Of a stretch of DNA of 64,000 bases, positions 33,581 through 34,620 are shown piece after piece. The translations under genes were made by a program, and so were the position numbers. Origin of the DNA: Vulcanimicrobiota bacterium (lineage in GTDB: Bacteria; Vulcanimicrobiota; Vulcanimicrobiia; Vulcanimicrobiales; Vulcanimicrobiaceae); contig OY970223.1 in the NCBI GenBank assembly GCA_963714015.1, forward strand, positions 2,368,001 to 2,432,000. Reading direction: 5' to 3'. How positions within the stretch are numbered: position 1 is the stretch's first letter; each line of letters begins with the position of its first letter. A model generated the notes under the pieces. That model saw nothing but the letters and a program-made list of their open reading frames with translations. It searched no databases and had not been told where the DNA came from.

Positions 33581-34480
33581 TCAATCCTTCATGCGGTCGC
33601 GGGGATGAGCCGCGTCGTACTGACGCTGTTTGTGCGTCATCGAGATTTTCAGATAGACGCCGGTCGTGGCGAGACTCTCGTGCCCGAGCAGTTCCCGCAC
33701 GGTTTCGAGGTCGACCCCGTTCTCCACCAAGTGCGTCGCAAAGGAATGGCGCAGGGTGTGGGGGCTGGCATGATACGTAATGCCGCTCACGTTATATATG
33801 TCGCGAAAGATCCGCCACACGTGCTTTGGCGTCAAACGCTTTTTCCCGCGTCCCAAAAACAGCGCCGCATCCGTCGTCGCGGGGCGGATGCGCAGATACG
33901 CTTCGATCGCGCGCGCCGCGCTGGTATTGATCAAAACGATCCGCTCTTTGCTGCCCTTGCCGTGCACGTGAATGGTGCGCCGGCGCAGGTTCACGTCTTT
34001 GAGGTCGATGCGCGCGACCTCGGCACGGCGCACACCGCTGGCGTACAGCAGTTCCATGATCGCAGTATCGCGCAGGCGCTGCCATGCGGGTCTGCCGGCA
34101 AGTGACGTCGAGAGCAACTTCCCGACGTCGGGAACGTCCAGATGCTCGGGCGTTTTCTTTTCGATTCGCGGTCCGGGGACGCCGGACGCCGGATCGTCCG
34201 CCCGCTGTCCGTAAAGACGCAAATACTTGTAGAGCGCTTTGATCGACGAAAGCTTTCGCCGCACGGTGCGGCTATCGTAACCGCGATCACCCGCCAGATG
34301 CATGATGTACCGGCGGACGTCCGACGTAGTCGCATCGCGCAGCGGCGCCTTATTCAGGAAGGCAGCGAACTCACGGAGATCCTGCGCGTAGGCCTCGACC
34401 GTCAGCTGGCTGCGGTTGCGCTCCAGGCGGAGGTAGGCCGTGAGCTCCTGGATGAGCGGGTCGACCGGCGGTCTCTCCAC
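33581..34480 (-). CDS. XerC/XerD-family tyrosine recombinase
   Basis: SAM-like N-domain TVEAYAQDL; catalytic R (SGVRRAE), K (GKGSKER), HTLRHSFATH, LLGH, Y (TTGVY), HPR end. Confidence 0.93.
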   Translation of the reverse strand: MERPPVDPLIQELTAYLRLERNRSQLTVEAYAQDLREFAAFLNKAPLRDATTSDVRRYIMHLAGDRGYDSRTVRRKLSSIKALYKYLRLYGQRADDPASGVPGPRIEKKTPEHLDVPDVGKLLSTSLAGRPAWQRLRDTAIMELLYASGVRRAEVARIDLKDVNLRRRTIHVHGKGSKERIVLINTSAARAIEAYLRIRPATTDAALFLGRGKKRLTPKHVWRIFRDIYNVSGITYHASPHTLRHSFATHLVENGVDLETVRELLGHESLATTGVYLKISMTHKQRQYDAAHPRDRMKD

Positions 34481-34505
34481 AGAGTTCTCCTCACGCCTCG
34501 GCTGA

Positions 34506-34533
34506 ATGCGACATAATAACAGTTTTATCGCAT
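34506..34533. other. dif-like Xer recombination site (11-6-11)
   Basis: ATGCGACATAA-TAACAG-TTTTATCGCAT; arms match 9/11 as an inverted repeat; the minus strand contains TTATGT, as in known dif XerD arms. Confidence 0.65.
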
Positions 34534-34620
34534 TCGAGAAGAGGCCGCTCGGCCCTTTGTGGGCAGGCGGTGGGTGGGAATCGGGGCTTCCGCCGGAATC
34601 TATTGTGTGGGGTGCAAGCT

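Follow-up and report, generated by a model that had tools for sequence, protein, structure and literature searches.

A probable one-enzyme dif/Xer system in Eremiobacterota, read from a terminus site beside its recombinase gene

In the window considered here (the whole analysed stretch of 64,000 nt, positions 2,368,001 to 2,432,000 of contig OY970223.1, assembly GCA_963714015.1, from a soil bacterium), an AT-rich palindrome stands directly upstream of a gene for a Xer-type tyrosine recombinase. This arrangement raises the question of whether the palindrome is the place where chromosome dimers are resolved and, if so, whether one recombinase serves both of its arms. From sequence comparison, we consider it highly probable that the site is the chromosomal dif at the terminus, resolved by a single XerC-like enzyme binding both arms; the locus very likely represents a one-enzyme form of the known dif/Xer system that recurs across Eremiobacterota.

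The site and its recombinase in the source genome

The features needed for the argument are as follows (window coordinates).

33581..34480, minus strand: xer gene (ORF with GTG start) for a 299-aa XerC-like tyrosine recombinase, the only full-length Xer in the genome
34487..34492, minus strand: candidate ribosome-binding site GAGGAG, with 6 nt between it and the xer start (GTG)
34506..34533, no strand assigned: dif-type site of 11-6-11 form, 5.7 kb from the GC-skew maximum

The non-coding letters of the site read ATGCGACATAA-TAACAG-TTTTATCGCAT, or ATGCGATAAAA-CTGTTA-TTATGTCGCAT on the xer strand. A sequence-only reading had described an AT-rich 11-6-11 site with arms forming a 9/11 inverted repeat, extended by GA/TC, at 25 bp from xer, and the window bears this out: 9 of the 28 bases are G or C (versus 60.9% GC for the genome, a single contig of 3.56 Mb), 9 of the 11 arm positions pair, the GA/TC extension is present and the ORF coordinates confirm a gap of 25 bp to the xer start. 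Symmetry alone is weak evidence, since the genome has 1242 places of 11-6-11 form with at least 9 pairs; an AA/TT inner core is found in 30 of them, and 2 are also AT-rich. The 18 palindromic bases of the 28 lie inside the range of proteobacterial two-enzyme dif sites, for which PMC2731167 gives 16.3 +/- 3.0.

Position and copy number were more telling. The 28-mer has no other match in the genome up to 7 mismatches and 2 further matches at 8. It is located at chromosome coordinate 2,402,506, near the maximum of the cumulative GC skew (2,408,216; the minimum is at 695,897 and dnaA at 712 kb), the plateau around the maximum being broad (about 2.33-2.41 Mb). The proposed check of uniqueness and of a place at the skew switch thus came out in favour of the site, which combines the AT-rich, partly palindromic 28-bp form, the single copy and the position seen in chromosomal dif/Xer systems. 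Mismatch, profile and palindrome searches of the genome found no better dif candidate elsewhere. One of the 8-mismatch look-alikes, at 1,274,188, was set aside as a chance match; it is far from the terminus and absent among the best profile matches.

Between positions 34000 and 42000 of the window the GC content falls to 54-57%, and secretin fragments, an lnt gene and a metallopeptidase gene are found there; this low-GC stretch may be DNA acquired beside dif.

The recombinase has both Pfam recombinase domains, and its catalytic residues (R151, K175, H241, R244, H267 and Y276), invariant in aligned relatives, make up an intact active site. Family models gave 278.5 bits for XerC, 256.5 for XerD, 229.2 for XerA and 119 for XerS; these scores are below the cut-offs of TIGR02224 (278.5 versus 335.15), TIGR02225 (256.5 versus 329.6) and the XerS model (119 versus 267), and the XerC cut-off was passed in 0/201 phylum genomes. 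The cut-off of the XerA model NF040815 was exceeded by a narrow margin (229 versus 220 bits), and Chloroflexota XerD and Omnitrophota XerC score higher on this model than the source protein does. Among PDB matches were XerD (E 1.5e-41) and, weakly, XerH (E 1.8e-14). Named close homologues come from Ca. Tumulicola, Baltobacteraceae and Eremiobacteraeota (Ca. Eremiobacterota), with one named row labelled Dormibacteraeota.

A quick tree built from 22 phylum and 46 outgroup proteins (outgroup labels by HMM; XerA, XerS, XerH and XerL not included) unites the phylum proteins in a single clade (support 99). This clade lies outside the XerD group (85), and its base among XerC-type proteins is unresolved. 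The arm word TTATGT had been taken as the mark of a XerD arm; this identification had to be given up, as the word is confined to the subclade of the source genome and the protein is XerC-like. Other clades have TTCTGT, TTTGGT, TTATCG or TTTGGG instead.

Xer genes and sites across the phylum

Six-frame searches of the source genome by tblastn and phmmer found no second full-length Xer homologue; the five other PF00589 matches each cover part of the domain and represent partial integrase pieces. The count of xerC and xerD homologues that had been suggested as a check thus gave one Xer, not the two paralogous genes of a XerC/XerD pair. The genome is rated 89.6% complete and its rpoB is split by a frameshift (contig positions 2036108-2038733), which suggests assembly indels; because a gene could therefore have been lost or broken, relatives matter here.

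In the phylum sample of 201 genomes we saw one Xer match in 167, two or more in 29 and none in 5. The identical search returned 2 matches in E. coli and 2, 4, 1, 2 and 2 in five outgroup genomes (two or more in 4/5). We looked at 11 of the 29 multi-match genomes and placed 10 extra copies in the tree, leaving out three matches of genome G079; 9 of the 10 fall outside the phylum clade, at 23-30% identity, and the second copy of G201 falls within it, on a long branch.

Some individual loci deserve mention. A tandem xer pair with one small gene between its members was seen in genome G030 (L065, G030:C14:4685-7202); a perfect 11/11 site precedes the upstream xer; in the downstream copy the catalytic motif is altered and the C-terminus short. 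In the outgroup genome with a single Xer match (Nitrospiraceae, G270, L110) the gene is preceded, at a distance of 146 bp, by an AT-rich 9/11 palindrome. At L093 (G142:C4) a second tyrosine recombinase, an integrase of 30% identity outside the clade, has a 10/11 palindromic 11-6-11 site of its own about 88 bp upstream; this pair looks like a mobile resolvase module.

The palindrome was also expected to be conserved beside orthologous xer genes, and it is: in 60 of 61 genomes of the class a site lies upstream of xer on the same strand, within about 200 bp in 41/61 and displaced by 0.45-12.7 kb in 19. The lone genome without a site, G023, has its xer on a 4-kb contig. Seed sites were chosen by eye and then profile-extended, and kin in the sample are non-independent. 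Unpublished genomes enter the tallies (G010 among the 41, G023 as the miss, G021, G036 and G175 in some counts), with no claim depending on them. Under a family-neutral site rule, sites appeared in 42/61 upstream versus 6/61 downstream windows of the class; the same rule gave 19/79 upstream versus 15/81 downstream for outgroup xerC/xerD genes. Of 192 genomes, 27 had a single match to one core pattern and 34 a single match to the other; reversed-pattern controls had 0. The spacer of the site is conserved across genera. Profile matches L044, L080 and L051 at -1351 were rejected as false, being inside coding or AT-rich DNA.

In other classes of the phylum an adjacent site with 8-11 pairs was present in 8/26 genomes; five of the remaining 18, searched whole, had one exact match each to a palindromic pattern, on another contig and with 10-11 pairs. 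Of 22 metagenome matches of the site, 21 have xer downstream on the same strand, and the remaining one has only 317 bp of flank. The distance from xer to dnaA amounts to 44-50% of the chromosome in 10/10 single-contig genomes (four chromosome sizes are rounded).

The surroundings of the site vary. In genome G019 (L064) a copy of the left arm is found 46 bp upstream of xer and the full site 4565 bp upstream; the left-arm copy is perhaps the scar of an insertion at dif. At L243 and L244 part of the left half recurs in inverted orientation about 25 bp upstream of the core. Displaced sites are separated from xer by other genes; in the case of G140 a 786-aa GGDEF-EAL protein, with homologues in seven more genomes, is encoded between site and xer; a GGDEF-EAL gene of about 780 aa has this place in eight genomes of one clade (L069, L063, L188-L192 and L194).

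Gene and site appear to have moved together. The Xer and RpoB trees were compared for 21 genomes from 30 RpoB loci (8 without a usable Xer locus and the two-copy G030 were left out). The RpoB tree recovered three families; the Xer tree instead joins the clade of the source genome with family f3 (support 99). Three RpoB clades are incompatible with the Xer data (p-AU 0.0003, 4e-11 and 0.006); these values flatter the result because the groups were named after the first Xer tree had been seen. Site type tracks the Xer tree; for instance G001, of the same genus as the source genome, has a Xer 48-50% identical and a different site type. Joint replacement of xer and site is the likely explanation of these patterns, and hidden paralogy may be an alternative cause of the conflict.

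One could then suppose that gene and site are the integrase/att module of a mobile element residing at the terminus rather than a means of host dimer resolution. The tree conflict would fit this, as would the low GC over 34-42 kb of the window, the left-arm copy near xer in G019 and the inverted half-site at two metagenome loci. However, a Xer match is present in 196/201 phylum genomes, mostly as a single one; xer is opposite dnaA wherever testable, and dimer resolution would have no other Xer to rely on. In addition, we found no second site bounding an island at the low-GC stretch of the source genome, and four site patterns, searched in viral contigs as possible phage att mimics, had 0 matches. 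We therefore judge the mobile-element explanation very improbable and keep to a dif used by the host.

Arm symmetry, the internal promoter and known systems

If one enzyme binds both arms, their bases should change together. In a set of 50 distinct sites, complementary bases occupy the outer pairs 1-6 in 42, 32, 43, 38, 41 and 29, each with 3-4 pair types; the inner pairs 7/22, 8/21 and 9/20 are complementary in only 13, 25 and 21. Pairs 10-11 are fixed by site selection. Over the outer eight pairs of the 50 sites a mean of 5.26 are paired, versus 2.94 with arms swapped (0/2000 as high) and 1.5-2.7 when the arms are slid; 16 clade representatives gave 5.9 versus 3.1. Symmetry is incomplete, with some sites having only 4-6 of 11. 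In proteobacterial XerCD sites the pattern is the opposite, positions 5, 6, 23 and 24 being rarely palindromic according to PMC2731167. The simplest cause of covariation in the outer arms would be one protein reading both of them. The idea of a single enzyme had originally been drawn from the near-symmetric arms; its real basis is the gene count together with the covariation of the outer arms, and the 9/11 symmetry does not serve as such.

A conventional two-enzyme system, in which a divergent partner missed by our searches binds one arm, would account for the asymmetric inner arms and for a total symmetry inside the XerCD range, and some genomes do carry other tyrosine recombinases that might play such a part. 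Yet the partner would have to have escaped both tblastn and phmmer in the source genome; the extra copies of relatives are patchy and nearly all outside the clade, and the outer arms covary in a way that the proteobacterial positions named above, as described, do not. This explanation we find very improbable. With a single enzyme, and by analogy with XerCD, XerS and XerH, two Xer monomers would occupy each site, two sites would synapse and strands would be exchanged across the 6-bp spacer; the direction of the reaction may be set by the asymmetric spacer together with the inner arms.

The site also contains promoter-like elements, found by sequence match.

34513..34521, minus strand: candidate extended -10, TG-T-TATTAT, inside the site and facing xer
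34535..34540, minus strand: weak candidate -35, TTCTCG (3/6), in the conserved pyrimidine-rich flank

The TGnTATTAT element had been noted before, and we find it in place (hexamer 34513-34518); a sigma-70 scan called no promoter at the source-genome site. In the ATGCGA, ATCATG and GCAC types the site overlaps with a -10-like hexamer that faces xer and whose position differs between types, and some genomes of family f3 have good promoters at the site (TTGACG-18-TATCAT and TTGAAA-17-TATCAT). A strict -10 is present in other site types in 12/18, 7/14 and 4/8 only. AT-rich sites readily yield -10-like hexamers. The 30/30 count of the ATGCGA type was discarded as circular for the most part: the pattern by which 21 of these loci were found contains the hexamer.

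Could the palindrome, then, be a mere operator for Xer self-repression, with the true dif elsewhere? The hexamers facing xer in three site types and the good f3 promoters speak for it. However, strict -10 elements are irregular outside these cases, the spacer is conserved across genera, and the source genome offers no better dif candidate. Moreover, the site is kept at a distance of up to 12.7 kb in the 19/60 displaced cases of the class, and in 5/5 other-class genomes tested a single exact match stands on a contig other than that of xer, which argues that it is more than an operator. We see hardly any chance that the operator explanation holds. The claim that Xer represses its own promoter cannot be general either, being contradicted by the displaced sites. 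For the source subclade alone we would suggest, with more doubt than conviction, that Xer represses a promoter within the site, the bound protein dampening transcription from it. Autoregulation of this kind has already been suggested for difSL-xerS (PMC1914069).

Several known systems invite comparison. XerS/difSL of Streptococcus and Lactococcus likewise has one recombinase, a site just upstream of its gene and FtsK; XerS, however, is a protein of 356 aa, and difSL has 31 bp with an 11-bp centre (PMC1914069, PMC5357621 and PMC2965235), so that the source genome, with 299 aa and 11-6-11, resembles it in the single enzyme with a site directly upstream (25 bp) and differs in protein size and site. 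XerH/difH of Helicobacter and Campylobacter also has one recombinase, usually linked to a site near the skew peak; its enzyme of 354-362 aa and its difSL-like site (PMC5357621, PMC2731167) have no counterpart in the source genome. Archaeal XerA/dif shares one enzyme of XerCD size, the 11-6-11 form, a site near the gene in Sulfolobales and conserved flanks (PMC5357621, PMC2958812); it is archaeal and FtsK-independent, whereas the source genome is bacterial and encodes FtsK-gamma, and its Xer scores higher with the XerC model.

The XerC/XerD-dif system of E. coli has the same geometry, terminus position, protein size and catalytic residues (PMC3025954, PMC5052618), with 13/28 bases of the source site identical to E. 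coli dif; it differs in having two genes versus one, and in the source genome the gene is at the terminus and the outer arms are symmetric. XerL/dif of Legionellales, which we could compare by description only, combines one recombinase with long symmetric arms, like the unlinked 10-11/11 sites of other classes; XerL is described as a divergent clade that homology searches for Xer overlook, and its gene is >400 kb from dif (PMC9765430). In operation, then, the present system is like XerS/difSL and XerH/difH; in build it is closest to XerA/dif and XerCD. The available portions of PMC3020120 and PMC7858055 added nothing to this comparison.

That such a module was undescribed for the lineage agrees with our literature search, which found no published dif or Xer for Eremiobacterota; most subscription journals, as well as the supplements of PMC3025954 and PMC9765430 with predicted sites, lay outside its coverage. 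The accessible text of PMC9418001 mentions Eremiobacter, xer and recombinase and is unrelated to a dif or Xer of the phylum. The present data place a terminus recombination site in a little-studied phylum for which we found none described, and they would add a bacterial one-enzyme system in which, unlike XerS and XerH, the protein has the usual XerCD size and the site the usual 11-6-11 form. Natural sites range from 4/11 to 11/11 in symmetry and come with matched enzymes, a series in which the directionality of one recombinase can be tested.

Flanking boxes, FtsK and polar motifs

On both sides of the core there are nonamers that we call DnaA-box-like by what we take to be the DnaA-box consensus. 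In the source genome they are the following.

34473..34481, plus strand: DnaA-box-like CTCTCCACA with 2 mismatches, at 24 bp from the core; it overlaps the start codon of xer and is a weak case, relatives having clearer ones
34558..34566, minus strand: degenerate mirror box CTGCCCACA with 3 mismatches, on the opposite side at 24 bp from the core; it falls short of the counting rule

With 2-3 mismatches and the start-codon overlap, the case for DnaA boxes is weak in this genome. It is clearer for the ATATCCAC type, where inverted boxes are found 8-10 bp from the core in 15/18 upstream and 15/18 downstream flanks, against a background of 2% per 60 bp and 2 matches in the wrong orientation. Boxes are present on both flanks in 24/34 genomes with the ATATCCAC core, with variable bases in between. 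These nonamer variants also adjoin dnaA in the source genome, G008, G011 and G140. In the site type of the source genome, boxes are 23-25 and 34-35 bp out and occur in 5/30 upstream and 7/30 downstream flanks; they are nearly absent in the GCAC type, the miscellaneous group and the other classes. A reading of the flanks as RNA hairpins was dropped, the core-to-box bases being unpaired in most loci as judged by eye. Titles and abstract openings covered by the literature search had no description of DnaA boxes flanking dif.

If the flanking boxes bind DnaA, they would make this a chromosomal dif with accessory sites tied to replication control. One could go further and speculate that the whole phylum has its own single-XerC-like lineage, exchanged as a cassette at the terminus, with helically spaced DnaA boxes bracketing the dif core in several lineages and the initiator acting as an accessory factor. 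We think this broader scheme unlikely, if worth stating: it would link initiation status to dimer resolution, either at the site or at the overlapping promoter. Within the source genome, DnaA-box-like nonamers are packed most closely at contig positions 1816600-1817000 (8 in 400 bp), far from both dnaA and the terminus.

FtsK with a gamma domain is encoded in one copy in 5/5 genomes. The C-terminus of the source Xer is XerC-like, and the positions of XerD E183/E184, important for activation by FtsK-gamma (PMC5052618), are not kept; activation by FtsK would thus probably not proceed via the XerD-type contact, and an enzyme without these contact residues lets the mode of activation be tested. 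AGAAGAA-type words are replichore-skewed in the source genome, even within crudely predicted lagging-strand genes, which makes them candidates for FtsK-orienting motifs. Steered by such polar words, FtsK would join the two sites and activate the reaction. Polar octamers of the E. coli and Bacillus types, in what are presumably their proper forms, were rare or weakly skewed in the same genome. The peak of polar motifs 2.3 kb from the site was rejected as proof; it is partly circular, the motifs having been picked with the site as split point.

We also observed a polarity of GAAG-type words in the 30-bp flanks of the site (window 34480-34545 and relatives), where 65 point away from the site and 15 toward it. 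Their direction opposes the replichore polarity of the source genome, and the downstream ones may be ribosome-binding sites.
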